A DNA stretch of 64,000 bases from positions 23,000-86,999 of IMG/VR virus record IMGVR_UViG_3300032293_000813. One strand, given 5' to 3'. Position 1 is the first letter of the stretch; each line of letters begins with the position of its first letter. This DNA comes from a virus. Taxonomy: Duplodnaviria; Heunggongvirae; Uroviricota; Caudoviricetes. This document shows positions 1 to 39,639 of this stretch, one piece after another. Under the pieces are notes generated by a model. The model saw only the letters and a program-made list of their open reading frames with translations, ran no database searches and had not been told where the DNA came from. Both the position numbers and the translations under genes were made by a program.

Positions 1-279
1 ATCCAACGCCGATGCTATGATTGGGTCGTTATCCATTGCATCATAATCTAAGAATAACTCTCTACGAATTACTTGATATGATAATTGGGTTTGATATACA
101 TCCTGCGTATATCCTGATTGCAATCTATAAAATCTATCCTTTAACGATTTTAAGTTAGTTACCTGTTGACTGTTTTCGGTATCAATAACTCTCGTTCTGT
201 TTCCTTCTTTTTTGACAATAACACCAGTCGAAAAGACCTTTCGTAATCTATCAAAAAAAGAATTGCTGTTTTCTGCCAT
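1..279 (-). CDS. Portal protein (T4 gp20-like), N-terminal part; runs off the window
   Basis: Manual translation from ATG at 279 gives MAENSNSFFDRLRKVFS...ELFLDYDAMDNDPIIASALD, open to position 1. The YDAMDxDPIIASALD motif resembles gp20-like portals, and the gene lies directly downstream of TerL. Confidence 0.75.
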   Translation of the reverse strand, partial: MAENSNSFFDRLRKVFSTGVIVKKEGNRTRVIDTENSQQVTNLKSLKDRFYRLQSGYTQDVYQTQLSYQVIRRELFLDYDAMDNDPIIASALD

Positions 280-373
280 TTTTTATATTATTTTCTATAA
301 TTCTTAAAACTATATTGTATATACATATATATAGAGAATTTACACTAAAACATTAATATATAAGTAAACTTAT

Positions 374-382
374 TATAAATAT
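374..382 (-). promoter_or_regulatory. Putative phage late promoter RTATTTATW (portal)
   Basis: ATATTTATA overlapping the TerL stop; the same motif lies upstream of at least nine other genes. Confidence 0.55.
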
Positions 383-1968
383 CAAAGTAACCATCTTATA
401 TCTTCTTTTTCGCTACCAAAATCCATTTCATACGGATTTTGTCTAAAAGTTTGATGATTATACACCCCCATTTCGTTTCCTGTGGATGCAAATGAGTTTA
501 ATCCTTGTTTAGCTAAATCCATTCTTTCTTGTCTTAAACGTAGTGCGGTATCCCTTACCCATAACCCAATCGCCAAACACATTGTTAAGTCGTCATTATA
601 CCCCCTCATAGCTTCCGCTCTGTTTGTGAACCATATAAAGGTAAATAACTCATCGATTGTTCTCATCGATTGGATTACTACCGATTTTTCTCTGAAGTAT
701 TCATCCAATTTAGATATCATAAGAGGACGGGTTTTAGATGATGTTGTAAATCCTGCTACCTGTCTTCTATCTTCTGCTCCGTGTCTGTTAGTATATTGTT
801 TTTCTACATCGATGTATGTATAATCCGATGTTTGATAATATAGATTGTTATATCCCCTATCTATTATCTGTTGTAGTGCCGCCCACCCAATATTTGCATT
901 CTCCACAACTAATAGTGCATTATTATAATCCGTTGCTACCGAAACTAAGAAATTACCAAATTCCTTTGTATCTATCTTACCTCTATATTCCGCAACCTGA
1001 ACATTGTTAACTACATCCATAACGTGGAAAGCTGAGTAATCCGATGCATCACCTCTGGCAACGTCGGCTACAACCATATAAGATTTATTGTAATCAGGAT
1101 ATTCCCATTTCCAATAGTTTCCATCCCACCCACCTTTTTCAACCGGGTCTTTAACAAATGTTTCCTTATACCACATTAGGATTTCAGGAGATATTACCGT
1201 ATCACCGGAAGATATAAAGTCACAATCACACTCTTGTGCTGCCAACTTTTCTCCCAATACTTTTGTTTGTTCATCTCTCCATCTTTGGTCTCTTTCAGGA
1301 TGAACGGTCCAATGTAGATGGATTGGATTGAACTCATTTGTTCCTTCCTCCGAACCTACCCATTGTTTGTGAAACCAATTACCCACACCATTCGGTGTAG
1401 AAAGTGCTATACAGCTACCACCCGTTGATAGGGCCGGAGTTGCAGATGCCCAAATCTCATTAATATCCGGTACGAAAGCCGCCTCATCGACAACCAGTAG
1501 TGATAGGGCTTCCGAACGACCTGCATCAGGTGAAGATGGAATAGCTTTTACTTGTGAACCATTTACTAATCGCAATGAGAGTTTGTTATCTTCCTGTGTT
1601 GCTACCTTTAAACAGCTCGGTAAGTTATCATACATAACCCTTAACTTTGTTACTAAGTTCTTAGCAACCTCCTGCTTAATCGCAATAACAAGTACGTTAT
1701 AATCTTGATTAAATATCATCTTCCACAAAGAATAACCTGCGGTTAGTGTGGAGATACCTGTTTGTCGGGATTTAAGAACTAAGTTGTATCGATGTTCTTT
1801 AAATTGCAATAAAGTTTTTTCCTGATATGGAAATAACTCAAACCTTAACTTACCTTTTGTAGGGTGTTGAATCTTACAATACTTACGCATGAAATATACG
1901 GGGTCTGCCGCACACTTAACATACTCTTGTCTGATTACATCCTTTAAAGATAATTGTTTATCCTGCAT
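382..1968 (-). CDS. terL: Terminase large subunit (T4 gp17-like)
   Basis: Walker A region LKSRQTGIST, Walker B VVDEAAF, STPNG motif and RNase H-like nuclease motif ADVARG..DYS; 528 aa with no insertion. Confidence 0.95.
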   Translation of the reverse strand: MQDKQLSLKDVIRQEYVKCAADPVYFMRKYCKIQHPTKGKLRFELFPYQEKTLLQFKEHRYNLVLKSRQTGISTLTAGYSLWKMIFNQDYNVLVIAIKQEVAKNLVTKLRVMYDNLPSCLKVATQEDNKLSLRLVNGSQVKAIPSSPDAGRSEALSLLVVDEAAFVPDINEIWASATPALSTGGSCIALSTPNGVGNWFHKQWVGSEEGTNEFNPIHLHWTVHPERDQRWRDEQTKVLGEKLAAQECDCDFISSGDTVISPEILMWYKETFVKDPVEKGGWDGNYWKWEYPDYNKSYMVVADVARGDASDYSAFHVMDVVNNVQVAEYRGKIDTKEFGNFLVSVATDYNNALLVVENANIGWAALQQIIDRGYNNLYYQTSDYTYIDVEKQYTNRHGAEDRRQVAGFTTSSKTRPLMISKLDEYFREKSVVIQSMRTIDELFTFIWFTNRAEAMRGYNDDLTMCLAIGLWVRDTALRLRQERMDLAKQGLNSFASTGNEMGVYNHQTFRQNPYEMDFGSEKEDIRWLL

Positions 1969-16640: not shown

Positions 16641-17109
16641 ATAAACCTGTTATTTGCATTGTATATTTTGGCTCCATCCCCATATTTCCACTAAGGTGAA
16701 GTTCTCCATATCTAATTACTTTAAAATTCATTTTTCCCCATCCCACAAATGGTTCATCTAATATTTCAAAATAGTGACCACTTTTCCACGACTCCAAAAA
16801 GAAATTCAATCTACATACTTCCTCTTTACTACATCCATTCTTTTCTGAAAACTTATAGAATGTATCAAAATGAGAGGGTATTGTTTGACCCGGCATTTGT
16901 TTAATTACACTCAATGAATATTCTGAAAATATTGTTTTAGCAAAAGTATGATACTCCTCCGGTAATTCAAATGCCTGATAATACTGAGTGTTCTTATCCG
17001 TATATCCTGCCACTATGTAAGCAATATTCTGAGCATCATAGTTATCCGAATTACCTAAACTTACGTTATCCGAAAGTGTATCAAATTTTATGTTATGTAT
17101 TGTTAGCAT
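16579..17109 (-). CDS. Fe(II)/2OG oxygenase-like (cupin) protein
   Basis: PGQTIPSHFD (HxD), distal HLSGNMG and YTMQITG. Confidence 0.6.
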   Translation of the reverse strand: MLTIHNIKFDTLSDNVSLGNSDNYDAQNIAYIVAGYTDKNTQYYQAFELPEEYHTFAKTIFSEYSLSVIKQMPGQTIPSHFDTFYKFSEKNGCSKEEVCRLNFFLESWKSGHYFEILDEPFVGWGKMNFKVIRYGELHLSGNMGMEPKYTMQITGLYEEFKRSETYTKSISKEVHY

Positions 17110-18061
17110 ATCCTAATGGGAATCCGTTTCTAAATTCAGATGTCATTCTAGGTATAAGTACTTGATAGGTTTTAATCAACTCTTCAATCCCATCATCTAA
17201 ACTATACTTAGGTTTCCAATCTGTTTTCTCTATCTTTTCATTCGATACTATATAATCTCTCTTATCAGGGTCTTCATAGAAATCCGAATAAGTGATTGCA
17301 AAATCAGGAATATATTGTTGTATCTTCTCTAATAATTCTTGTTTACTCAAATTAGCATCACTCAATCCTACATTATATACATTATGTTTCATAGTTTCAT
17401 AGTTATGCAATCCATGATAGAATACTCTACTAACATCTTGTATATGAATGAAATTTCTTTTAAAATGTCTTTCAAACACAACAATATATTTGTCGGTTAA
17501 TGCTTTATAAACAAATTCGTTTACTAATAAATCCGTTCTCATTCTCAGAGATGAACCAAATACGGTTGCTAATCTAAAACAAACTGCAGATGTTGATTCC
17601 ATTAATAACTTCTCCGCTGCAACTTTACTCTCCCCATAAACTGATATAGGATTCAATGGTGATTCTTCTGTGCAAAACTTACCATCTTCACCAACACCAT
17701 ATCCACTATTTGTATTTGGATATAATATCATCTGTTGGTCGGAAACTACTTTTGCGATATTTTCAATCTGATTGTAGTTTATTTCCCATGCTAACTTAGG
17801 GTCTTTTGCACACGCAGGAAATCCTACGATGGCAGCCAATGGTATTACAACATCATGTGTTCCCACTAGCTTCGTTAAAAGTGCTTCGTTCCTAACATCA
17901 CCATAGATGAAGTTATATCGTTTGTTAGCGGTAAACGCCAAAGGTGATATTTGATTGAATGATAGGTTATCTAATACTGTAACTTCGTGCCCTAAACTTA
18001 AAAAGTTATCGGTAATTACAGAACCTAAGTAACCTGCTCCTCCTGTTATTAAAATTTTCAT
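17093..18061 (-). CDS. NAD-dependent epimerase/dehydratase (extended SDR)
   Basis: ITGGAGYLGS, LAAIVG, canonical YGESK and FRLATVFG. Confidence 0.9.
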   Translation of the reverse strand: MKILITGGAGYLGSVITDNFLSLGHEVTVLDNLSFNQISPLAFTANKRYNFIYGDVRNEALLTKLVGTHDVVIPLAAIVGFPACAKDPKLAWEINYNQIENIAKVVSDQQMILYPNTNSGYGVGEDGKFCTEESPLNPISVYGESKVAAEKLLMESTSAVCFRLATVFGSSLRMRTDLLVNEFVYKALTDKYIVVFERHFKRNFIHIQDVSRVFYHGLHNYETMKHNVYNVGLSDANLSKQELLEKIQQYIPDFAITYSDFYEDPDKRDYIVSNEKIEKTDWKPKYSLDDGIEELIKTYQVLIPRMTSEFRNGFPLGYANNT

Positions 18062-18795
18062 TCTCCTTTTATTTTATCTAAAATTCTATTTTGTATATCA
18101 TTTACATTATAATCTTGATATAAGAATCCATGATTCCCATTACCACTATAATCCCAAACTTTAAATCTGTTAATCTTATCTTTTAGGAATCTATATCTTG
18201 CTAAAGTAAATCTTCTAGTTATTTCACTATTAAACAAATCCATTTCTTCCTTTGATAATGCCTTTTCCATAATAACTACATCATCTATATTACCTTTATA
18301 CCACCAACTATATTGTTTCAAATGGTCTTCGATATAATGGGGTGCTCCTGCTCCTATATAGAAAGGTGTGTTATCATAATTTATAACTTCCGTTTTAAAC
18401 TTATGTTCTCTATCGATTCCATTAACTCTAATTCTAAAAACTTTATTAGTATAATCAACACTATAGAATACTTCATTCCACTCTCTATCGAAATCATATG
18501 GGTCTGAAAAAGAAATATTCTCTTTATCCAATACACCTGTCAGCCATAATTGATTTGATATTACAAATAAATCATCTTGCTTATTTATAAAACATCCACT
18601 ATGAAGACCTGATTTTGAGAATACTGCATATACCTCATTACCCTTTTCTTCTATCTTAGGAGTTCTAAACTTAGCATAGGCCGTAAAATCATGCTGAAAG
18701 AATGTTTTAAAGTTTGGTTTCTTAGATGTATTGAAAGATGAATTCTCCCATACTTTATAACTCAAATCTTTATCAAAATTTACATATTGTGTCAT
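18058..18795 (-). CDS. Stand-alone LamG/concanavalin A-like domain protein
   Basis: FYIGAG...YKGNIDDVVIMEKAL...WDYSGNGNHG. Confidence 0.7.
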   Translation of the reverse strand: MTQYVNFDKDLSYKVWENSSFNTSKKPNFKTFFQHDFTAYAKFRTPKIEEKGNEVYAVFSKSGLHSGCFINKQDDLFVISNQLWLTGVLDKENISFSDPYDFDREWNEVFYSVDYTNKVFRIRVNGIDREHKFKTEVINYDNTPFYIGAGAPHYIEDHLKQYSWWYKGNIDDVVIMEKALSKEEMDLFNSEITRRFTLARYRFLKDKINRFKVWDYSGNGNHGFLYQDYNVNDIQNRILDKIKGE

Positions 18796-20180
18796 TATCT
18801 AAGGTTTTTACATAAGTTCCAAAATTCTTCTAACTCTGGAAATGTTTTTAAGAAATCAGTTCCTCTTCTTCTATCATGCTCAGTAAAGAACCTAAAAAAA
18901 TCTTTTCTATCTCTTTTTAATGAGTGTTCTTCTTTCGGTGCAGTTACTACATCATATATTCTTCTTAATTTATGAATCTCCACATCGGTATATCCTATTG
19001 GATTTTGCGTTCCTAATGTTTCATAGAAATCCATTAATTGCGCTTGCTCATAAACTTCTTTGTGCCAATCATCTGTTATAATGTTTGCCGCCTGATGGTT
19101 TGGATGTCTTAAATAAGAACTATCCAATCCAATTGGGTAGAACCAATATCTATCTGTGTTGGTAAATTGTTGTTTCAATTTATACACATCTTCTATTAAT
19201 CCTTTATATGAAGGAATACTCAATACATTATAAGTTCCCATAATAGAAATAGTAAGTTTAGGAATCTCTTCCAATAACTCTGCGCATCTATCATACCATT
19301 GGTTATAATCAAACCCATTTCTAATATATTCCGATTGCTTACCTTTACCATCGCAAGATGTAAATAAGACAAACTCTCTAACCAATCCTTCTCCACTAAT
19401 TCTTTTAATCTTCTCCTTTGCCATTTGATATAACTTATCAGGTGCACCTAAGTTAGAATTGATTGCCAACTTTAACTTTGGATTAGGATTATCGATTACA
19501 TAATCAAATACCTTAAAGGTATCTTTGTGTAAAAGGGGTTCACCACCGGTAATTCTAAAGTTTAGAAGGTCTTTATATAAATCAGGCCACCACTTCCAAA
19601 ATGCTTCCACATAAGGATTATGTTCAGTTTGCTTAAATGGTTGCTTACCATCTCTGATTAATTGGTCTAAACTATTATGTCGGGTCGAAGTTGGATACGC
19701 ACCAAATTGTTCAATCTCATCCCACCATTGTGTAGAGAATTGTGGATAACAATATGAACATTTAAAGTTACATACATTTGAGAACGATACTTCAACGTAT
19801 GAAGGGTTTACATCCTCTAAGTAAGAACTATTTTTAATCTCTTCATAATAAGGTAATGCCCACTCTTCCGCAGATTTAAAAGTTCTATCTGAAAACTCAT
19901 TTGAGCTATCTTCAACTTTCCAACAATAATCGCATTCATTTGGTTTGATACCTTGCAACATTTCTCTTCTCAATTCCTTTTTGTATTTGGTATTGTGAAG
20001 TGCGGATGGGTTACCTTCCAATTCTTCAGGTACAATTTTATGTAATCCAGGATGGTGGCAAGAGTGATTCTGCCCTATATGTAAATGTAGGGTAACTTGT
20101 TTCCACTTAGCTAAACAAAATCCTTGTCCAACTGAATTTAGTTTTTTCCTTATTTCGGAATATCTCTCTATATTATCCAT
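18795..20180 (-). CDS. Radical SAM protein with N-terminal Cys/His cluster, paralog 1
   Basis: CNFKCSYC (CxxxCxxC), ITGGEPLL, plus N-terminal CLAKW..HSCHH..CDYCW. Confidence 0.9.
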   Translation of the reverse strand: MDNIERYSEIRKKLNSVGQGFCLAKWKQVTLHLHIGQNHSCHHPGLHKIVPEELEGNPSALHNTKYKKELRREMLQGIKPNECDYCWKVEDSSNEFSDRTFKSAEEWALPYYEEIKNSSYLEDVNPSYVEVSFSNVCNFKCSYCYPQFSTQWWDEIEQFGAYPTSTRHNSLDQLIRDGKQPFKQTEHNPYVEAFWKWWPDLYKDLLNFRITGGEPLLHKDTFKVFDYVIDNPNPKLKLAINSNLGAPDKLYQMAKEKIKRISGEGLVREFVLFTSCDGKGKQSEYIRNGFDYNQWYDRCAELLEEIPKLTISIMGTYNVLSIPSYKGLIEDVYKLKQQFTNTDRYWFYPIGLDSSYLRHPNHQAANIITDDWHKEVYEQAQLMDFYETLGTQNPIGYTDVEIHKLRRIYDVVTAPKEEHSLKRDRKDFFRFFTEHDRRRGTDFLKTFPELEEFWNLCKNLR

Positions 20181-20841
20181 ATTTATTCGGTCTGGCTTTC
20201 GAAACGAAATCCATTATTTTATCGTGTTTAAATTTAACAGGCTCAGATATTAACCCATGATTACCATTTCCACTATTATCAAATATCTTAAAATTAGTTT
20301 TAGTATCCATATCCAACGAGGTATAAATTCCTTCTTCTTCTAATACAACATCTCTCTTTAAATTAAAAGATATTTCATGTGGTTCTAATGGTCTATCGTA
20401 TATAACTAATCTACTCAATTCACCTTCCAATAAATTTTCATCGGTTGTTTTCTCATGAATATTATCAGCTAAAAAAGTAAAGTAATTATTCTCATCTACT
20501 ACTTTTGGATAGTCAGGTTTGAAATCAAAACTAACTACTTTATTTCCATTAAAATAAGTAAATTTATGTCTCTTATAATCAATGTTAATAAAGAAATCAA
20601 ATTCGTTTCCAATATCATCTACTATATAAGAATGATATGTTCCCAAATCTTGAAACTGAAAGTGTAATTTATCTTCCGAAATAATAAGTGTTTCAGTTGA
20701 TAGATTTCTTCTATATAAGTAACCTACTTTCTTTGTGCAATTATGTGAACCAGTAAATCTAATAGAATACCCTGCAACTAAGTCTGTAAACTTTTTTGTG
20801 TTGGTTTTATTATTGGATTCATTTTGTATTGTGAATATCAT
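20173..20841 (-). CDS. Stand-alone LamG-like domain protein
   Basis: EGELSRLVIYDRPL...FDNSGNGNHG; similar to 18058-18795. Confidence 0.6.
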   Translation of the reverse strand: MIFTIQNESNNKTNTKKFTDLVAGYSIRFTGSHNCTKKVGYLYRRNLSTETLIISEDKLHFQFQDLGTYHSYIVDDIGNEFDFFINIDYKRHKFTYFNGNKVVSFDFKPDYPKVVDENNYFTFLADNIHEKTTDENLLEGELSRLVIYDRPLEPHEISFNLKRDVVLEEEGIYTSLDMDTKTNFKIFDNSGNGNHGLISEPVKFKHDKIMDFVSKARPNKYG

Positions 20842-22232
20842 AGTTTTCCTTTTCTACATTTTTTATAAAGTTCATCGAATTCAGGGAATGTTTCTAAGAA
20901 ATTAGTTCCCCTTCTCATATCATGATGTCTTACAAAGATAAAGAAATCTTTTCTATTTTTCAAGAAAGTTGAATCATCATCGTGGTTTTTCATCCATTCT
21001 GCAATTCTCTTTACTTTAGTAATTTCAATATCTGTAAATCCATAACCATCTTCCCCTACTCTTACTTGCTCATAAAAATCCATAAGTTGAGCCTGTGAGT
21101 TTACTTCCTCTATCCATTCCTTATCTAATATCTTAACACTTTGATGCGGAGGCCATCTAAGATACGAACTATCTAATAATACCGAACTACCATAGTATCT
21201 ACTAGAACTATGATATTTCTTTTTCAATTCATATACATCTCTAATCAATCCTTTATAAGATGGAACTGATAAAGCATTATATGTACTCATTATGATAATA
21301 GTAAGTTTAGGATTTTCTGTTAATAAAATGTTTATTCTTTCGATAAACAAATCATAATTAAACCCATGTCTTATATAGTTTGCCTGCTCACCATGCGCAT
21401 CACAAGATGTGAATAGAATAAACTCATTAACTCTTTCTTCATCCATTAACTTTTTAATCTTCTCTCTGAACTCATTGAATATCTTTTCAGGAGCATTTAA
21501 GTTAGTGTTAATAGAAAGATTCAATGCCTTATTAGGATTAGGTTCACTATTGATGAAATCTAATACATCAAATGTATCCTTTGCCAAAAGAGGTTCTCCT
21601 CCTGTGATTCTGAATGTATGTAAATCCTTATACAAATCCGGCCACCATTTCCAAAACGCATCAACGTATGGATTCTTTTTATTATGAGGTATCGGCATCT
21701 GGTCAGTACTCTTCAAATAATCTAAGTTATTAAAATTAGTTGAAGTAGGGTATGAACCATGTTGTTGAATTTCGTCCATCCATTGAGATGAAAACGCAGG
21801 CCCACAATATGAACATTTAAAGTTACATACATTTGAGAACGATACTTCCACATATTTTGGGTTAATATCTTTTTCACCTTTTGTTTTCAATACCTCATCG
21901 AAATATTGCATCGACCAGGGTTCGGTAGATTTATATACTCTATCAGAAAACTCATTTGAATTATCCTCTATGTTCCAACAATAATCACACTCTTTAGGTC
22001 TTAATCCTTCCATCATTTCTCTTCTTCTATTCTTCTTATAGTTTGTATTGTGAAGAGCAGATGGATTCTGTGCCACCTCTAATTCAGAAATCTTATGTGT
22101 TACGGGGTGATGACACGAATGGTTATGACCCGTTTGCAGTTGAAGTGTAACCTGAGTCCACTTAGCTAAACAAAACCCTTTTCCAACTTTGTCTAACTTC
22201 TCTTTTGTTTTTTCGAAATGTTCGTTTAGCAT
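20838..22232 (-). CDS. Radical SAM protein with N-terminal Cys/His cluster, paralog 2
   Basis: CNFKCSYC, ITGGEPLL and CLAKW..HSCHH..CDYCW; colinear with 18795-20180. Confidence 0.9.
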   Translation of the reverse strand: MLNEHFEKTKEKLDKVGKGFCLAKWTQVTLQLQTGHNHSCHHPVTHKISELEVAQNPSALHNTNYKKNRRREMMEGLRPKECDYCWNIEDNSNEFSDRVYKSTEPWSMQYFDEVLKTKGEKDINPKYVEVSFSNVCNFKCSYCGPAFSSQWMDEIQQHGSYPTSTNFNNLDYLKSTDQMPIPHNKKNPYVDAFWKWWPDLYKDLHTFRITGGEPLLAKDTFDVLDFINSEPNPNKALNLSINTNLNAPEKIFNEFREKIKKLMDEERVNEFILFTSCDAHGEQANYIRHGFNYDLFIERINILLTENPKLTIIIMSTYNALSVPSYKGLIRDVYELKKKYHSSSRYYGSSVLLDSSYLRWPPHQSVKILDKEWIEEVNSQAQLMDFYEQVRVGEDGYGFTDIEITKVKRIAEWMKNHDDDSTFLKNRKDFFIFVRHHDMRRGTNFLETFPEFDELYKKCRKGKL

Positions 22233-23668
22233 TTACAATTTATTAATACTGAATTATTACCAATGTCTTCTATATTCAATAGTTCGTATTTCAAACTATT
22301 CATCCCATCATTCTGCCAATTATATTTTCCCTGCTGCATCTCTAACACATATCTCTTCTCATTTCTTGCAGTTGTTGCCCCTTTCTTCCATTTACCATTT
22401 ACCAATCCTTCGGTTTCATGTGGTAAACATTCAAACTTACCATTTCTTCTATAAGGTATAACGGTTGATGGTATCTCCATTTTCTCTTTGGTAAATGTAA
22501 CATTATGCATTTTACCATGATTACCATTTCCCGTTTTATCTTCAACCATCTCATCGATGAAAGAATCAAAATCATAATGAAGTTGTAAACCATCTTCTTC
22601 TAAATGAAATGGAATATCTGCTACCTCACCATCCGTCATACATCTATCATACATTCTAACTTCAGCAATTTCTCCCTTAAAAAACTTGTTCGGTTGATTT
22701 TGATTTATAGAAGGAGATGTTCCCATATAAAATCCTTCCGTTCCATATCTCTTTAAATCACCACTATATTCCATTGGAGAAGTTACACCTGTTCCAAATC
22801 TAGCATCTGTTTCTCTTCCGTTTAAATAGAAGTGAATCTTTTTATTATAAGCATCCACTTTCAAAGTTACCCATGTCCATAAATTCTCATATCGCTTCAT
22901 CCACATATATTGCATCTCCTTCTCACTATTCCATAACATCGAAGTAAATGCTCTACTATTGTTATATGATAATCCCCAATCATATCCTGGTCTTCTTAAG
23001 ATAGGATATTCCCAAAATCTTCTATTCTCATCTCCGATTAAGTAGATAGGAATCTTTTCTTCTTGTTGGTGTGCCTTTACTAATACTGAAATAGTATGAG
23101 AACGATTACACATAAATCGGATAGAACGAGATTGTGCGGTTTCTATATAGGATTTTATTCCATCAAAATTAGCCACACTAAATTCATTCTGTGGTTTGAT
23201 ATATGTTTGGTCTGCCATCCCATTTAATGCACATCTCCAAAACAAATCATCATCTTCCATACCCCAATCCCAATAATCATTTGAGTAACCATTGGTTTTG
23301 TAAACTTGTTCTTTTGTAAACAATACAGCGCCCCCAAAATACTCCTCATATTTGAGGTTATAATCTGTTTGAGATATTCTTACCGCCAAATGTTTTGGGT
23401 TCTCAGGATTGTAACTATAATCACACGAATCATCTTCTGGTATCATATCAATATCATGCCATACGATATAATCACATCCATCCTTAAATGCCACATCCGC
23501 TGCAATGTTTTTCATCTTACCTCTGTTAAAAAGTAAGTTATCACATTGGTGTGCAAAATATATTTTATGCTCAATACCTCTCTCTTCCAAAAATTTGTGA
23601 ACTCTCGGTGAGAACTGAGCTAAATGTTCTTCTCTGTTTCTATATGGTACACATACCCCTAACTTCAT
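22226..23668 (-). CDS. GT7 (beta-1,4-galactosyltransferase-like) glycosyltransferase with inserted LamG domain
   Basis: VPYRNR, FNRG, HDIDMIP and NGYSNDYWDWGMEDDD, then LamG (FKGEIAEVRMY...DKTGNGNHG), then the GT7 tail (LPH...NEKRY...DGMNSLKY). Confidence 0.85.
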   Translation of the reverse strand: MKLGVCVPYRNREEHLAQFSPRVHKFLEERGIEHKIYFAHQCDNLLFNRGKMKNIAADVAFKDGCDYIVWHDIDMIPEDDSCDYSYNPENPKHLAVRISQTDYNLKYEEYFGGAVLFTKEQVYKTNGYSNDYWDWGMEDDDLFWRCALNGMADQTYIKPQNEFSVANFDGIKSYIETAQSRSIRFMCNRSHTISVLVKAHQQEEKIPIYLIGDENRRFWEYPILRRPGYDWGLSYNNSRAFTSMLWNSEKEMQYMWMKRYENLWTWVTLKVDAYNKKIHFYLNGRETDARFGTGVTSPMEYSGDLKRYGTEGFYMGTSPSINQNQPNKFFKGEIAEVRMYDRCMTDGEVADIPFHLEEDGLQLHYDFDSFIDEMVEDKTGNGNHGKMHNVTFTKEKMEIPSTVIPYRRNGKFECLPHETEGLVNGKWKKGATTARNEKRYVLEMQQGKYNWQNDGMNSLKYELLNIEDIGNNSVLINCKC

Positions 23669-25101
23669 AACTCTACTGAAATCATTTTAGCCTTTTCAGA
23701 TAATTCTTTTTCTTCTACCTTTTTATATCTTAATGTATTCAATCCTTCAATCGAATAGAATAACACATCGTCTTTAATTGAATTGAATCTTAACTGATTC
23801 TTTCTAGTCTCTTCCCAAACCCATCTATTTCCTTCTACACTATTAGATGAATGTTTAAGTGTTTTGAACTTACAATCCTTTTTAGTTGGAATCGTAACCT
23901 CTACCATAAACTTACTATTCATCAATGTGTTAGCCTGGCAATTGATAATCTCAGCATCAAAGTTGTTACCGGATATATCAATCAATTTATCCTTTCTATA
24001 ATGTCTGAAATCGTAATATGTTTTTAAACTCTTAGATGATTTATATTTACCAAAATTATTCAATAGGGATTTCTTAGCTGAATCTTTATATATTTGATTG
24101 ATTTCAGGCAAACTTAATGCCTTATCAAATACCGCAAACTCAGAAATCAATCCTTTGAAATAATAATTCTCATAATTCTTAGATGGATTGGCAACTCCTA
24201 AATAGAAATCGGTTACATTGTAATCATACATATCTTCTATAAATTCCTCACCTATTAATTTACCATTGATAAACAACTCAATACTTTTACTACGATAGTT
24301 TCGTTTGATAACTGCGTGTACCCACATATCAGGACTAATATCAGATGTTATACTTCTACTCTTTTCTTCTTTATCCCATATATCCAATTTGTATCTATTG
24401 AAACTATTATAGGATAGAGAGAAGTTAAAACCAGGAATAGAGAATATTGTGTATTCATCGTATTCTCTGTTTGAGTTATTAACTAAATCCTCTGCTTTAA
24501 ATTTAATAGAGATACTGAAATCATCATTAAGTATCTTTTTAAATTGAGGAAATGGAATACTAACAAATGAATCAATTCCGTTAAAGTAGAAATAATTCAA
24601 TACAAAGTTTTCATCCTCTATACCAAATACTTTTTTATCCAATGTAAGATTACAACTCTCACATCTTTTTAAAAGGTCATCATCCTCAAAACCCCAACCC
24701 CAATATTCGTTAGAGTAACCATTAATAATTTTGAAATCTAATTTACTCAATATAGTAACTCCACCAAAATAGTTATAGAAACTTTCTTCGCCATTAAGAG
24801 TGTTAGCTAAGTGAGTTGGTACATCACAATACGAATAATCCGCATCGATAGGTAACATATCCACATCATGAAAACAATAGTAATCAAAATCAGGTCCACT
24901 TTCTTTATAACCTACATTCAACAACTTACCTCTATTAAAAGGTTTATCATCTTTTTGTTCAATGACAAAAACCTTGTAATCAACTTTAGTTCCTAAATAT
25001 TCTTCAATATATGGAATAAAGATGTTAAGGTGAGATTCCCTATTTCTGTAAGGAACTATTATTGCTAATTTCTTAGTTGTTGTTTTACTGCGGTCTTTCA
25101 T
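23665..25101 (-). CDS. GT7 glycosyltransferase with inserted LamG domain
   Basis: VPYRNR, FNRG, HDVDMLP and NGYSNEYWGWGFEDDD, LamG (FKGLISEFAVFDKAL), then the GT7 tail (EGLNTLRY). Confidence 0.85.
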   Translation of the reverse strand: MKDRSKTTTKKLAIIVPYRNRESHLNIFIPYIEEYLGTKVDYKVFVIEQKDDKPFNRGKLLNVGYKESGPDFDYYCFHDVDMLPIDADYSYCDVPTHLANTLNGEESFYNYFGGVTILSKLDFKIINGYSNEYWGWGFEDDDLLKRCESCNLTLDKKVFGIEDENFVLNYFYFNGIDSFVSIPFPQFKKILNDDFSISIKFKAEDLVNNSNREYDEYTIFSIPGFNFSLSYNSFNRYKLDIWDKEEKSRSITSDISPDMWVHAVIKRNYRSKSIELFINGKLIGEEFIEDMYDYNVTDFYLGVANPSKNYENYYFKGLISEFAVFDKALSLPEINQIYKDSAKKSLLNNFGKYKSSKSLKTYYDFRHYRKDKLIDISGNNFDAEIINCQANTLMNSKFMVEVTIPTKKDCKFKTLKHSSNSVEGNRWVWEETRKNQLRFNSIKDDVLFYSIEGLNTLRYKKVEEKELSEKAKMISVEL

Positions 25102-25318
25102 CGTTAGGTCTTTCTGAATCTCTCATTGGTCGAGATACACTTCCTAAGTTTTTAGCTTTTAAAATAGTGTGAAATTCATGTAAGTACCATTCAACTCTTG
25201 TTCCCCAAGCTGATTTATCGATTTCAAACATCCAATCATTTAAATCTCTGAAAGATGAAGCAATATCTTCTAATGCTCTTACCTTTCTCTCTTCTAAGTT
25301 TTTTTCGTCTACTGCCAT
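25085..25318 (-). CDS. Small hypothetical protein, tandem paralog A
   Basis: 77 aa; alignable end to end with 25333-25566. Confidence 0.7.
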   Translation of the reverse strand: MAVDEKNLEERKVRALEDIASSFRDLNDWMFEIDKSAWGTRVEWYLHEFHTILKAKNLGSVSRPMRDSERPNDERPQ

Positions 25319-25332
25319 AACTTAATGTTTAA

Positions 25333-25566
25333 TTATTGAGGTCTTTCAGTTCCCTTTTCAGGTCTTCCTGTGTTACCAATAGTTTTCGCTTTTGCAATCA
25401 TATAGAATTCGTTTAAATACCATTCTAATCTTTCCGACCATCCTTTGGTATCTAACTCATACATCCAATCTTGAATGTTTTCCAATGAACCTGCAATCTT
25501 TTCAAAAGCCTTAACAGCTCTTTCTTCGATGTTATCGGTTTGTTCTGGTTTTTTAGATGTTGCCAT
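25333..25566 (-). CDS. Small hypothetical protein, tandem paralog B
   Basis: 77 aa; shares W-M-x-E-x-D...W..R.EWYL.EF and C-terminal ERPQ with 25085-25318. Confidence 0.7.
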   Translation of the reverse strand: MATSKKPEQTDNIEERAVKAFEKIAGSLENIQDWMYELDTKGWSERLEWYLNEFYMIAKAKTIGNTGRPEKGTERPQ

Positions 25567-25567
25567 T

Positions 25568-25816
25568 TTATTTATTTTTTAATTTATTTTCTGTTTTGTG
25601 TTGAAAGAATCCTGTTGGAAATGGAGTAGCCTGCCTCGATGAATAATATTCTCTTAATAATTCTAATGCAGAGAATATTATCGGTTGTACATATGAGAAG
25701 GTTTGAAGTGTTTTATTCTTTTCAAAAACTTCTAATGCTTCCGCTACTCTTTCCGCTTTACTAACAAATTCTTCGTTGTTAATAAGTTTTTTTACTATAG
25801 AACTATCTTTATCCAT
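25568..25816 (-). CDS. Small hypothetical protein
   Basis: 82-aa ORF filling the gap in a tightly packed operon. Confidence 0.5.
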   Translation of the reverse strand: MDKDSSIVKKLINNEEFVSKAERVAEALEVFEKNKTLQTFSYVQPIIFSALELLREYYSSRQATPFPTGFFQHKTENKLKNK

Positions 25817-27282
25817 GTTGCTTTTTCATTTATTTGTTCTTCTGATAAAATCTTATAATTTAAATAATTCAATCCTACCTCTTTTGTATCCAATCTATTT
25901 GTTAATACTTCGTTGAAATATATTTGAGAGTTTTGTACAATATCCGGGTCCCAACTATAAAACTTCTCCGTTATTTGGTCATCACCTTCGTGGATTAAAG
26001 ATTGATACTTACCTAATATTCTAGATGGAACTGATAAACGGGATGTTTTTGGTATCGTATCCTTTTTAAGATACTCCGAATAGTTTCCGAATTCAGGTCC
26101 ATATATCTTAACGTGATTAAGAGTTAATGAATCATCTAAAATAAAATCTCTATATGTTTTATCAAACTTAATATTCAATACAGGCTCTAAATCTGTATTC
26201 TTTTTCTCATCATTATATCCTTCTAAATAAAGGTTATCAATTTCTCGTTGTTCTAACACATAATCAAATAACAATACGTTAGCCATCTTACCATTATATC
26301 TAGCGGTATTCAAACTACTACATCCTAAGAATAAGTGTTCGTTTGTATAATCATATAAAGGTGTTACGATGTAAGGTTGTTGGTCTCCTGTATAACTTAT
26401 CTTAACTGAGTTTAAATACATCTCAATTAATTCCTTATTATAATCAACAACAAATACTACATGATTCCAAACACCTGGTTCATATTTCTTATATGCAAAA
26501 CAATACTGTTTATCATTATCATAAACATTCACTCTTATTGTACCATCTTTCTGTAATGATATACCGGTATTAAATCCTTTCCAAGCAATTAAGTATTCCT
26601 CTTCTTCTACCATATCAGAATTGAACCATAATGCGGCAGTAAAACTATCTCTCGTAATATCTCTTAATTGAGCATTAGGAAATATCTTTAGGTACAAATC
26701 GTTACCACTAAAGTCCGCATAGTTTACCTGCTCAATATATTTCTTATCTGTTATCTTAATCTTTTCAAATTCATAATAAGAATCTATGCGAGGAAAAATT
26801 GTTTCTTCATCTAATTCAATTTCGTTTATTCTACATCTGTGAAGTAAATCTAAATCAGCAAACCCCCATCCCCAATACTCATTTGAAAATCCATTTATCT
26901 TTTCGAAATCTTCTTTACTAAACATAACAACACCACCCATATATTCTAAGTAAGGTAACTTAAACTTATGAGCAGATACTCTAGTTGCCATATGAACGGG
27001 ATATCCACCAATGTGAATGTAATTGTAATCACAATCATCACTTACAGGCAGCATATCAATGTCGTGGAAACAGAAATAATCAAATTTATCTTTCAATAAA
27101 GAGAATCCTATATTACAGATTTTTCCATAGTTAAATGGTTTATCATCGGTTTGCTCAACAATAATAATTTCATACTCTACATCTTTGTTCTTAAAGAACT
27201 CAATCATGTGAGGTACGAAAGTATCTAACTGCTCTCGTCTATCCCTATAGGGTACTATTATCGCTATCTTTTTTCCGTACAT
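25795..27282 (-). CDS. GT7 glycosyltransferase with inserted LamG domain
   Basis: VPYRDR, FNYG, HDIDMLP and NGFSNEYWGWGFADLD, LamG (YNGKMANVLLFD), then the GT7 tail (VGLNYLNY). Confidence 0.85.
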   Translation of the reverse strand: MYGKKIAIIVPYRDRREQLDTFVPHMIEFFKNKDVEYEIIIVEQTDDKPFNYGKICNIGFSLLKDKFDYFCFHDIDMLPVSDDCDYNYIHIGGYPVHMATRVSAHKFKLPYLEYMGGVVMFSKEDFEKINGFSNEYWGWGFADLDLLHRCRINEIELDEETIFPRIDSYYEFEKIKITDKKYIEQVNYADFSGNDLYLKIFPNAQLRDITRDSFTAALWFNSDMVEEEEYLIAWKGFNTGISLQKDGTIRVNVYDNDKQYCFAYKKYEPGVWNHVVFVVDYNKELIEMYLNSVKISYTGDQQPYIVTPLYDYTNEHLFLGCSSLNTARYNGKMANVLLFDYVLEQREIDNLYLEGYNDEKKNTDLEPVLNIKFDKTYRDFILDDSLTLNHVKIYGPEFGNYSEYLKKDTIPKTSRLSVPSRILGKYQSLIHEGDDQITEKFYSWDPDIVQNSQIYFNEVLTNRLDTKEVGLNYLNYKILSEEQINEKATWIKIVL

Positions 27283-28136
27283 TATATTGAAACTATGTGT
27301 TTAGATAGTTTATTCCAATTACTGAAAGATACGAAGGATTTTTCAGATTTCCAAGTGAATTCTTTGTATTTTTCCAAATCTATACAATATCCATAATCCT
27401 CTATACCATTCAACATTATCTGATATTCTCTTGAGTAAGAATAATCTTGTCCAATCTTTGCTACCGCTTTCAATCTATCTACTACACTCTTATCCCATTT
27501 GAAATGGTGAACTTGTACAAATCCCTTATTAATTGGATATCTCAATGGGTGATTCCAACCTTGCCATCTCCAAGTTGATTGCCCTTCTATTTGAGCATAA
27601 TGTTGACCGGATGTTACTTCAATTCTACCTTTACATAATGTAACTTTATTTGGACAGGCTCCACTCATTGGGTATCTAAAAAATGAACTGATAGGAAATG
27701 CTTCCCATAAATCCGTATTCTCATCTACAAATGGAAAACTACCATCTTCTCCAATCTTATCTATAAATCCACCGGTTACAAATTCCCATCCATTATGTTC
27801 ACACTCTTCTATTATAGAATTTACATCATCCCAATACAAATGTAATTCATCATCATCCGCTACTATCCACCAATCGTTGGGATATAAGTTCTTTATCTCA
27901 TTGTAGAAATGTGTTACTGAAATCCAATTGAATGCATCCGATTCTCTTTCGTGCACAATACATCCAAATTCTTCAGCAATCTCATTAACTCTATCGAATG
28001 ATTCTTTATTGTTTACATCAAGAGTTCTGTAATTAACCAAATGAATTTCACTCACTATATCTTTATAATGAGATAACATCTGTCGTAGAGTATTTGTTCT
28101 ATGACCAGTAACGGTTATTAATCTAGGTTTTTTCAT
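27282..28136 (-). CDS. GT-A fold glycosyltransferase (GT2-like)
   Basis: DxD-type WWIVADDDELH and a later VHHFKW, typical of Glyco_tranf_2_4-like proteins. Confidence 0.6.
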   Translation of the reverse strand: MKKPRLITVTGHRTNTLRQMLSHYKDIVSEIHLVNYRTLDVNNKESFDRVNEIAEEFGCIVHERESDAFNWISVTHFYNEIKNLYPNDWWIVADDDELHLYWDDVNSIIEECEHNGWEFVTGGFIDKIGEDGSFPFVDENTDLWEAFPISSFFRYPMSGACPNKVTLCKGRIEVTSGQHYAQIEGQSTWRWQGWNHPLRYPINKGFVQVHHFKWDKSVVDRLKAVAKIGQDYSYSREYQIMLNGIEDYGYCIDLEKYKEFTWKSEKSFVSFSNWNKLSKHIVSI

Positions 28137-28891
28137 TTTCTTCGTATGAGTGTTAATCCAGTAGATGATGGTTTATTTTTTATGATACCAAAATTAAATA
28201 AGTTAAATACTTCCCAATCTTTACTATCTTTCAATTCTTTTACAAATTGAATAGGCCCACTCCAATCATCGTGGTCACCTCTATCTTTTATTTCATTTGT
28301 TATAATATAGTTATCAGCATATTTCGAATCAGTATCGTGTATTGAGATGATACCATTTTCTGATAATATTTGTGAGTATAAATCAAAATCTTCCTTAACG
28401 TTTTCATATGAATGTCCTGCATCTATGTGTAAATAATCAATCTTAATATCGTTTAATACAAAGTAATTGTGAAATGCCTCTTCGGTAGTTGTGTTAATAA
28501 TTCTAGGATGAAAAGTTCTTCTGTAAAATGATTCTTCTGCAAACCAATCTACATTACCACCAATACCATTCATTGCATCAACTACATAAGTTGTTCCAAT
28601 ATCTCCCCAATTATAATCAGCATTTCCTTCGAAGATTCCTTGCCTATGTAAATCGTATCTAGATTGTGTCATTAGACGAGGAATAAATCCTCCTCCACTA
28701 CCTAAACATACACATACTTTAGCTCTCATATATTGTATAATAGAATATATGATTAAACCATCGCCTAAGTGTACATCGGTTGCTCCGTGAGACCATCTAT
28801 AGGGAACAGGATGCTCCTCTTCTTCACCTCTAAAATCAAACTCTAAATTGTTAGTGAGGTACTTCTTTATGTAGTTTAAGTCTTGTAACAT
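28133..28891 (-). CDS. Class I SAM-dependent methyltransferase (Methyltransf_24-like)
   Basis: LGSGGG motif I and IDYLHIDAGHSYENVKEDF...IISIHDT. Confidence 0.8.
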   Translation of the reverse strand: MLQDLNYIKKYLTNNLEFDFRGEEEEHPVPYRWSHGATDVHLGDGLIIYSIIQYMRAKVCVCLGSGGGFIPRLMTQSRYDLHRQGIFEGNADYNWGDIGTTYVVDAMNGIGGNVDWFAEESFYRRTFHPRIINTTTEEAFHNYFVLNDIKIDYLHIDAGHSYENVKEDFDLYSQILSENGIISIHDTDSKYADNYIITNEIKDRGDHDDWSGPIQFVKELKDSKDWEVFNLFNFGIIKNKPSSTGLTLIRRK

Positions 28892-35783: not shown

Positions 35784-35819
35784 GATAAATACCGTTTTAT
35801 TGTATTTATTTATAAATAT
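35784..35819. promoter_or_regulatory. Divergent late-motif cluster between the tail fibre and RHH genes
   Basis: Minus strand GTATTTATC (35792-35784) and ATATTTATA (35819-35811); plus strand GTATTTATT (35802-35810). Confidence 0.5.
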
Positions 35820-39246: not shown

Positions 39247-39639
39247 TTATTTACCAATTAAATCCATTGGTGTATTGCGGAATATTCTATATGAATCCTC
39301 ATTAAAGTGTTGAGTACTAACCTCATATATAGTAGATAAATCATCTATAGCTTGCAGTTGATGTGGTAGCCCTCTTTCTATTGTAACCGAATCCCCAGCT
39401 TTAATTATTTGTGATACCAATTTACCGTCTTCTACATCTAACCAACTGAATATAAAACTACCCTGTTGAACATACCAACTCTCTTTTTTCTTTAAGTGAT
39501 AATGCATTGAGAACTTATCACCGGTATTATTGAATACTAATAATTTTCCACAATACTCTTCATCATTGTGAATCCATAATTCGTAACCCCATGCCTTTTC
39601 TACTTTAAGGGGTTGTTTAATTTCTACTTCTAATTTCAT
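39247..39639 (-). CDS. Cupin protein (sugar-phosphate isomerase-like)
   Basis: VEKAWGYELWI...SMHYHLKKKESWYV...GLPHQL. Confidence 0.75.
   Translation of the reverse strand: MKLEVEIKQPLKVEKAWGYELWIHNDEEYCGKLLVFNNTGDKFSMHYHLKKKESWYVQQGSFIFSWLDVEDGKLVSQIIKAGDSVTIERGLPHQLQAIDDLSTIYEVSTQHFNEDSYRIFRNTPMDLIGK

Follow-up and report, generated by a model that had tools for sequence, protein, structure and literature searches.

Why would a phage place a LamG domain in the middle of a glycosyltransferase, and why would further LamG proteins be encoded next to radical S-adenosylmethionine (SAM) enzymes? The question is raised by a block of genes in a window of 64,000 nucleotides (nt), comprising positions 23,000 to 86,999 of the IMG/VR phage record IMGVR_UViG_3300032293_000813, which is 164.5 kb long and estimated to be 83% complete. 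All genes of the window, which has a G+C content of about 31%, lie on the minus strand, including the seven genes under study (three GT7 glycosyltransferases, two radical SAM (rSAM) proteins and two free LamG proteins), which are found at the coordinates first given for them. With a probability of about 0.5, we read the stretch as the conserved core of an operon for the building and tailoring of glycans in an uncultured freshwater T4-like myophage. The genes of the block are listed here from its upstream end.

25795..27282, minus strand: GT7a, 495 amino acids (aa), with a LamG insert at residues ~183-413 (nt 26044-26736), assigned from Pfam, alignment A1 and a motif census.
25568..25816, minus strand: s82, an open reading frame (ORF) of 82 aa without a family, with a best-hit homolog in 10 related loci.
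25333..25566, minus strand: s77a, a helical protein of 77 aa, whose family is conserved directly upstream of GT7b.
25085..25318, minus strand: s77b, a tandem paralog of s77a, 77 aa.
23665..25101, minus strand: GT7b, 478 aa, with a LamG insert at residues ~165-399 (nt 23905-24609) and the full HDVDM / WGWGFEDDD / His signature.
22226..23668, minus strand: GT7c, 480 aa, with a LamG insert at residues 160-399 (nt 22472-23191), modelled with AlphaFold.
20838..22232, minus strand: rSAM1 (P0004), 464 aa, an N-terminal twitch radical SAM protein (NF033640, 328 bits).
20173..20841, minus strand: LamG1 (P0005), 222 aa, a free protein of the LamG family, with an ATGA overlap with the rSAM1 stop.
18795..20180, minus strand: rSAM2 (P0006), 461 aa, 56% identical to rSAM1, NF033640, modelled with AlphaFold.
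18058..18795, minus strand: LamG2 (P0007), 245 aa, a free protein of the LamG family, with a TAATG overlap with the rSAM2 stop.

We found that the three GT7 proteins (P0001-P0003) match both Pfam halves of the family, Glyco_transf_7N with E-values of 1e-19 to 1e-24 (67.8-86.3 bits, cut-off 27) and Glyco_transf_7C with 1e-17 to 1e-20 (63-70.5 bits, cut-off 23), and that they also match Laminin_G_3 (PF13385) with 61.2, 56.1 and 40.6 bits (cut-off 27.6; E 4e-10 to 2e-16). The LamG insert of ~235 residues follows the helix after WGxEDDD and precedes the strand running to the metal-binding His, and its boundaries align in the three paralogs. Invariant in alignment A1 are D72 and D74 of the DxD motif, W135, G136, D139 and D141, and, after the insert, H417, N436 and G455. 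A family profile of 47 members aligned with B4GalT1 and B4GalT7 over positions 1-152 (E 5e-46), and its tail (428-471) aligned weakly with the C-terminal DGLNSLTY region of B4GalT1.

GT7c is the GT7 paralog that was modelled (predicted local distance difference test score, pLDDT, 88.8). Foldseek superimposed residues 1-152 of the model on B4GalT7 and B4GalT1 with a root-mean-square deviation (rmsd) of 1.8 and 36% identity. VIA-align, which tolerates insertions, extended the match over 1..480 of the model, with 208 of 243 residues aligned to B4GalT7 (4irq_D; Z 26.1, rmsd 1.9) and 208-214 residues for B4GalT7 and B4GalT1 together (Z 25-26, rmsd 1.9-2.2). With the same program, the insert (~160-400) matched solved jelly rolls, namely the LamG domain of PAPP-A (Z 22.2), the Bacteroides carbohydrate-binding protein 4dqa (Z 21.8) and pentraxins (Z 18-19.5). 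Because the B4GalT fold spans 1..480 of the model and residues ~160-400 match LamG jelly rolls, the LamG domain of the modelled enzyme is a true insertion inside the GT7 fold. A preliminary description of this DNA had proposed three LamG domains inserted at the same point of GT7, and had named inserts without a LamG fold as a result that would speak against it; the invariant columns of A1 and the fold over 1..480 agree with the common insertion point, and the insert matches LamG jelly rolls at Z ~22. A circular permutation was considered for the terminal GNGNHG hairpin of the insert and was dropped, as the sequential structural alignments cover the insert to residue ~394-400.

The nearest known enzymes are B4GalT1 and B4GalT7 (CAZy GT7), which share with the phage proteins the fold, 30-36% identity in the N-terminal part, the DxD and WG.EDDD motifs, the hinge His and the DG(L/M)N.L.Y tail. 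In contrast to them, the phage GT7s have no membrane anchor or stem and start at about bovine residue 180; they are phage-encoded, a 235-residue LamG domain interrupts their fold, and the acid motif of GT7a is degenerate. No evident signal peptide or transmembrane segment was found in the GT7 proteins, whose N-termini begin at the first GT7 strand. The equivalent of H417 in B4GalT1 is the hinge of a mobile loop that shapes the acceptor site. A low pLDDT at loop 421-428 of the GT7c model, just after H417, fits such a mobile loop. From family membership and the model, we predict that the three proteins are inverting GT-A enzymes with a beta4GalT-type fold.

Among the 579 relatives of the rSAM proteins in IMG/VR viral contigs, 79 loci (numbered L) were examined. 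According to the motif census, the GT7b and GT7c orthologs retain HD(I/V)DM, either WGWG(F/Y)EDDD or WDWGMEDDD, and the His. GT7a of the window has kept the DxD motif and the His, with a degenerate acid motif, WGWGFADLD. The acid motifs of its class vary (ADLD, EDLD, SDLD, YDLD), and some orthologs with WGGIFHWED are without the hinge His (L015-L082). Depending on the threshold, GT7a was recognised in 23-31 of the 79 loci, a count that the 6-kb upstream flank may have lowered by cutting some copies off. GT7a may differ in its donor or acceptor, or it may lack activity in some of the phages.

Both rSAM proteins score far above the cut-off of 170 bits for the NCBIfam family NF033640 (rSAM1 328.2 bits, rSAM2 324.0 bits), and none of 14 model control genomes has a member above this cut-off. 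In 29 aligned rSAM sequences, seven cysteines are invariant: C137, C141 and C144 of the CxxxCxxC motif and, at the N-terminus, C22, C41, C83 and C86. This four-Cys segment precedes CxxxCxxC and is a putative site for an auxiliary cluster. The AlphaFold model of rSAM2 (pLDDT 93.3) has the radical SAM core fold, and its structural matches are SkfB (Z 14.7), BlsE (13.5), the pyruvate formate-lyase activating enzyme PFL-AE (12.6), MoaA, SuiB and viperin (12.2-12.4) and DesII (11.8). A sequence search of solved structures with the rSAM proteins gave viperin as the best match, with an E-value of 0.4. At the DNA level, the two rSAM genes are 71-75% identical, with a period of 2046-2055 nt.

Of the two free LamG proteins, LamG2 is recognised by Laminin_G_3 (E 8.6e-8, 32.9 bits), and LamG1, which remains below the cut-off of 27.6 with 14.9 bits (E 0.03), is assigned to the family through an iterated family profile and through its place within the free-LamG clade. 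The five LamG-like domains in 9 kb that had been described earlier are therefore all present, LamG1 by iterated profile and tree and the others by Pfam. Comparison with hhalign of the free-LamG alignment (n=41, mean identity 21%) and the GT7c insert (166-394) gave a probability of 99.2% and an E-value of 1e-19 over 208 colinear columns, which take in the terminal F.F...KVWD.SGNGNH hairpin. Judged by these profiles, the free LamG proteins are homologs of the GT7 inserts, and all belong to one LamG subfamily. The shared end motif had been assigned to three of the domains; GNGNHG is indeed found in three, and in corrected form all five end in a hairpin of the type F.F...V.D.S.N.N.G. Despite the low mean identity, G-x-H-x-G, K212, D215 and N221 are nearly invariant in the free LamGs. 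A profile search for their relatives yielded 105 clusters at E ≤ 1e-30, nearly all of them stand-alone proteins of 200-280 aa, and the best 150 of 3035 relatives were almost all stand-alone proteins of this size, GT7-LamG proteins or giant multi-LamG proteins. In the DNA, 26 nt coding for the GNGNHG hairpin are 88% identical in LamG2 (18128-18153), LamG1 (20255-20280) and the GT7c insert (22515-22540); outside the hairpin, the three modules are barely alignable as protein.

The association of the rSAM gene with the LamG gene is conserved. In all 79 loci, the rSAM gene after GT7c is followed by an ORF of 197-306 aa with a gap of -22 to +4 nt, and in 78 of them, the exception being L069, this ORF was recruited by the iterated profile of LamG1 and LamG2. 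The synteny survey that had been called for thus confirmed the adjacency in 78/79 related phage loci. The proposed translational coupling was seen in part: the overlaps exist, ATGA at 20838-20841 and TAATG at 18795, but they are not special to the pairs, since every junction from GT7b to the epimerase/dehydratase gene downstream of LamG2 overlaps. A tandem double pair as in the window is limited to the closest relatives (L006-L014). In the rSAM tree, rSAM1 groups with L030 and L032 (support 96) and rSAM2 with L015, L016 and L024 (support 98); in the LamG tree, LamG1 is again placed with L030 and L032 (support 97), and LamG2 falls with the L015-L025 type (support 95). The two trees agree, and therefore the pair is inherited as a unit, and the two pairs of the window are two lineages of one two-gene unit. 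A predicted complex of rSAM2 and LamG2 (alignments A3 and A2) scored 0.00, which counts neither for nor against binding. As a separate observation, a second, distant rSAM gene (~515 aa) lies ~1 kb downstream of the LamG gene in many of the relatives, at L016:9054-11130 and at the same place in L017-L025. In L016-L025 it is followed by a gene for a 178-aa RmlC-like dTDP-4-dehydrorhamnose 3,5-epimerase (E 8e-33); the counterpart ORF of L030 is DUF6071/GDSL-like.

Is LamG a module that is exchanged between the enzymes? For 67 sampled GT7 proteins, we compared a tree of the catalytic columns with a tree of the LamG columns. Each class (a, b and c) comes out as one clade from both sets of columns, the support values being 84, 100 and 96 for the catalytic part and 99, 96 and 97 for LamG. 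When the free LamGs were added to the LamG tree, four separate groups were obtained, the free forms being one of them (support 98). A chimera would break one of the trees and neither is broken, so that no exchange is seen among the sampled GT7 proteins, and each LamG lineage has therefore been with its own enzyme since before the triplication. The idea of a swappable module, put forward in the preliminary description, did not hold: a, b, c and free LamG are four clades without exchange. By these trees, LamG is an old and fast-evolving module that has stayed fixed to its enzyme and is not shuffled. Its faster divergence, also claimed before, applies to the comparison with the N-terminal catalytic part (22-25% versus 41-50% identity among the GT7 paralogs of the window), but not to the C-terminal catalytic tail, which has diverged equally (19-23%). 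Between GT7c orthologs, the LamG part is 55.6% identical and the catalytic part 72.8%.

The gene order small ORF-GT7b-GT7c-rSAM-LamG is shared by 79 IMG/VR phage contigs, with GT7b-GT7c-rSAM in practically every untruncated locus (GT7b in 73/79 and GT7c in 77/79). GT7-LamG proteins form at least 1868 clusters at 90% identity; the best 120 all have the same Pfam order, and none is functionally named. The full architecture is present in a single entry of the AlphaFold DB clusters, A0A2E0BNI5 (TM score 0.83), and in no entry of the viral structure library BFVD, which contains only LamG-less GT7s of giant viruses. The closest of these LamG-less structures are A0A5J6VLB6, a protein of 258 aa from a Megaviridae environmental sample that is 36% identical over 153 columns, and A0A481YZG5 from Mimivirus LCMiAC01, with 31% identity. 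This hints that GT7 circulates among aquatic viruses. Freshwater and lake metagenomes from nine or more studies contain at least half of the sampled words of the stretch. Cultured phages gave no DNA match to the stretch and no tblastn match for GT7c, and the only rSAM match among them was in Ralstonia phage RsoM2USA (39%), where the 233-aa ORF downstream of the rSAM gene showed no LamG by Pfam or BLAST.

In a set with one genome per prokaryotic species (L085-L162), cellular NF033640 proteins are concentrated in metagenome-assembled genomes (MAGs) of predatory Bdellovibrionota (Bdellovibrionales, Bacteriovoracaceae, Halobacteriovorax, Oligoflexia). Their neighbourhoods contain unrelated housekeeping genes or more rSAM paralogs and gave no clue to a substrate. 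The long rSAM ORFs L102 and L135 of Bdellovibrio loci contain no LamG, L102 consisting of two fused rSAM domains. In cellular bins, the full cassette was found only on contigs that are probably phage DNA, namely a 248-kb contig from the bin of a Flavobacteriaceae MAG and short contigs assigned to Pelagibacterales.

The gap 25101-25795 had been overlooked in the preliminary description and holds the three small ORFs s82, s77a and s77b. The s77 family, which has no Pfam family, is encoded directly upstream of GT7b in 71/79 loci, with the core LEERKVKALEKIA..L..W.EEIDK..W..R..YYL.EF and a variable tail that often ends in RPxKxxER. Parts of the block are covered at 90-97% identity by contigs from two RNA-labelled libraries, in which DNA carry-over is possible. 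The s77/s82 segment (25085-25816) has the highest contig depth of the block in an RNA-labelled library. Sequences of relatives are present in a freshwater metatranscriptome library, a hint of expression, with the same possibility of DNA carry-over.

Three neighbouring genes frequently accompany the core.

28133..28891, minus strand: SAM-dependent methyltransferase (Methyltransf_24), in 57/79 loci.
27282..28136, minus strand: possible GT2/GT92-like glycosyltransferase, 284 aa, in 62/79 loci, a lead from an ESM Atlas feature search.
17093..18061, minus strand: NAD-dependent sugar epimerase/dehydratase of the short-chain dehydrogenase/reductase (SDR) type, directly downstream of LamG2, in 47/79 loci.

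The 284-aa protein has no Pfam or NCBIfam match. ESM Atlas places it with viral clusters named 'glycosyltransferase 2-like', some of which carry a GT2 or GT92 Pfam family, and the cassette may have in it a fourth glycosyltransferase. A further recurrent neighbour is a gene resembling the alpha subunit of thiamine diphosphate (ThDP)-dependent E1 enzymes (40/79 loci). In the whole window, the genes for sugar metabolism comprise three SDR epimerases/dehydratases, a split ThDP E1-like pair, a cytidylyltransferase fusion, a methyltransferase and several glycosyltransferases. In relatives, the RmlC-like epimerase gene after the second rSAM gene adds to this sugar context. Next to the thymidylate synthase gene, a cupin of 130 aa (39247-39639) shows weak matches to the WbuC family and to cupins of the mannose-6-phosphate isomerase type; it may be a further sugar-pathway gene outside the main block.

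The window also carries the marks of a T4-like myophage: a large terminase, a baseplate wedge protein, an SbcCD-type nuclease, thymidylate synthase and a tail fibre of 1945 aa with Peptidase_S74 at its C-terminus. The closest terminases of cultured phages are those of Flavobacterium phage immuto (56%) and Microcystis phage Mel-JY01 (55%). The glycan block sits between the tail-fibre and terminase genes in a co-directional, tightly packed and apparently late structural array, with the tail-fibre gene immediately upstream of it and gaps of 6-37 nt. The sequence TATAAATA, the T4 late-promoter consensus, is found at 35807-35814 on the minus strand, ~40 nt upstream of the tail-fibre start (35765); its inverse overlaps on the plus strand. 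No copy of it occurs between the closely spaced genes of the glycan block, and it is not enriched in the window (12 found, 20.6 expected). Window scans found promoter-like sites below and terminator-like sites about at the level expected by chance.

How might these proteins work together? Given the gene content, with SDRs, ThDP E1-like pair, cytidylyltransferase, methyltransferase and glycosyltransferases, the pathway would be cytoplasmic and probably expressed late, and it would make, assemble and tailor unusual sugars. The three soluble GT7 paralogs would add successive sugars in the host cytoplasm, and the LamG domain present in cis beside the acceptor side would hold the acceptor, either the growing glycan or its carrier protein. 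An rSAM protein and its free LamG would form a two-subunit tailoring enzyme, in which LamG binds the substrate for radical chemistry on a sugar residue. For the target of the glycan, our leading guess is a protein of the virion, given the short distance of the block from the tail-fibre gene upstream and the presence of TATAAATA ahead of the start of that gene. Taken to its end, the proposal would be one of lectin-guided assembly and editing of glycans in aquatic phages, in which GT7 reads its acceptor via a built-in lectin and rSAM with its lectin edits the assembled glycan of a virion protein; in this complete form we consider it tentative and rather doubtful.

Several points weigh against a glycan-tailoring operon directed at the virion. 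The fold matches of the rSAM2 model are generic, with near ties over substrate classes, and do not single out a sugar substrate. No fusion of rSAM and LamG was present among the best 150 of the 3035 free-LamG relatives. The rSAM loci of Bdellovibrionota are often tandem arrays of paralogs and never contain GT7 or LamG, and therefore LamG is not required by the rSAM family as such; within the loci compared, the LamG partner is specific to the phage rSAM subfamily that follows GT7c. The virion was named as target from gene position alone. Moreover, we know of no described activity for any of these proteins, nor of a donor, an acceptor or a product.

Other explanations have to be weighed against this. 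The cassette could remodel an envelope glycan of the host during infection (O-antigen, capsule or S-layer), for instance to block superinfection, and the LamGs would then bind a lipid-linked or polymer intermediate. The sugar-nucleotide genes of the window resemble those of O-antigen pathways, and an envelope function is the reading of PMC7029224 for the glycosyltransferases and radical SAM cassettes that pelagimyophages carry in their host-recognition cluster. However, all enzymes are soluble, the scanned genes include no recognised flippase, polymerase, ligase or membrane protein, and the block is embedded in the apparent late structural array; a remodelled envelope is conceivable, and we give it a limited chance. 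We find it unlikely that the LamGs are instead protein docking elements that hold GT7 and rSAM together in one multi-enzyme complex, or anchor them on a scaffold protein or a protein of the virion, via LamG-LamG or hairpin contacts. LamG folds often bind protein, PAPP-A and pentraxins are among the best structural matches, the five modules of one subfamily share the terminal hairpin, and LamG2 has at its N-terminus a weak repeat of the hairpin motif of its C-terminus. Yet no LamG contact has been observed on which docking could be based, and the fast and independent divergence of four LamG lineages fits varied ligands better than a common interface.

Most SPASM/twitch enzymes modify proteins or peptides, and the rSAM proteins might accordingly be maturases, with the adjacent LamG or s77 as a substrate that is then glycosylated by GT7. 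The best structural matches include SkfB, SuiB and CteB, which are maturases of ribosomally synthesized and post-translationally modified peptides (RiPPs), together with the protein-activating PFL-AE; the near-invariant residues of the free LamGs and an s77 family of helical proteins, encoded four genes upstream, that is conserved in the cassette and variable in its tail could be read in the same sense. Even so, we regard a maturase as quite improbable: neither a leader/core peptide pattern nor a RiPP recognition element was recognised, a jelly roll of 245 aa would be an unusual rSAM substrate, the surroundings are sugar-nucleotide enzymes, and the sugar-acting BlsE and DesII match structurally about as well. 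Very improbable, in our view, is a hypermodification of phage DNA bases with glycan, although some phage glycosyltransferases do attach diverse glycans to DNA (Pyle et al. 2024, as cited in PMC12619734). The sole ThyA-family gene of the 164.5-kb record encodes a true ThyA (TIGR03284, 316 bits, cut-off 108), and a second copy of the thymidylate-synthase family, a possible hydroxymethylase, was not found in this record, which is 83% complete. No action on DNA is known for GT7 enzymes or LamG domains.

A LamG that serves the acceptor side of a transferase would have parallels in known systems. In lactose synthase, alpha-lactalbumin sets the acceptor choice of B4GalT1. In the polypeptide GalNAc-transferases (GT27), this is done by a C-terminal ricin-type lectin domain (PMC5716993). 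By analogy with these, we propose that LamG is an accessory module by the acceptor side of a GT-A transferase; unlike them, the phage module is a LamG jelly roll inside the catalytic fold, neither ricin- nor lysozyme-like and neither appended nor separate. The phage rSAM proteins reach about twice the cut-off of NF033640 (N_Twi_rSAM) and share its N-terminal four-Cys segment, whereas the cellular members in Bdellovibrionota MAGs are without LamG or GT7 partners. The family has a curated name and, to our knowledge, no known reaction. In aquatic T4-like phages (pelagimyophages and cyanomyophages), glycosyltransferases and 'radical SAM cassettes' have been reported beside tail-fibre genes (PMC7029224), and glycosyltransferases encoded by mycobacteriophages decorate capsid and tail proteins (Freeman et al. 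2023, as cited in PMC12619734), which is a precedent for a virion target. These papers describe no GT7-LamG enzymes or rSAM-LamG pairs, and in contrast to pelagiphages, the terminase of the window is closest to those of immuto and Mel-JY01. In agreement with the preliminary description, which had not recognised a described system, we found no literature on GT7 with LamG or on twitch rSAM proteins with phage glycosyltransferases. In its architecture, the block combines a novel form of lectin-assisted glycosyltransferase with a radical SAM-lectin pair that has no described analogue.

GT7 is a textbook animal family. Here, it has a phage-borne branch of considerable size, in which a lectin-like domain interrupts the enzyme at the hinge that forms the acceptor site. 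The conserved, co-inherited LamG partner provides a handle for finding the substrate of the rSAM proteins, and the parts of the cassette are small, soluble and easily expressed. If the proposed lectin-guided pathway is true, it would comprise the first lectin-directed radical SAM 'glycan editors' and the first complex virion glycan in T4-like phages. If its product decorates virions, this would bear on how glycosyltransferases gain acceptor specificity and on the host recognition, stability or grazing resistance of abundant freshwater phages.

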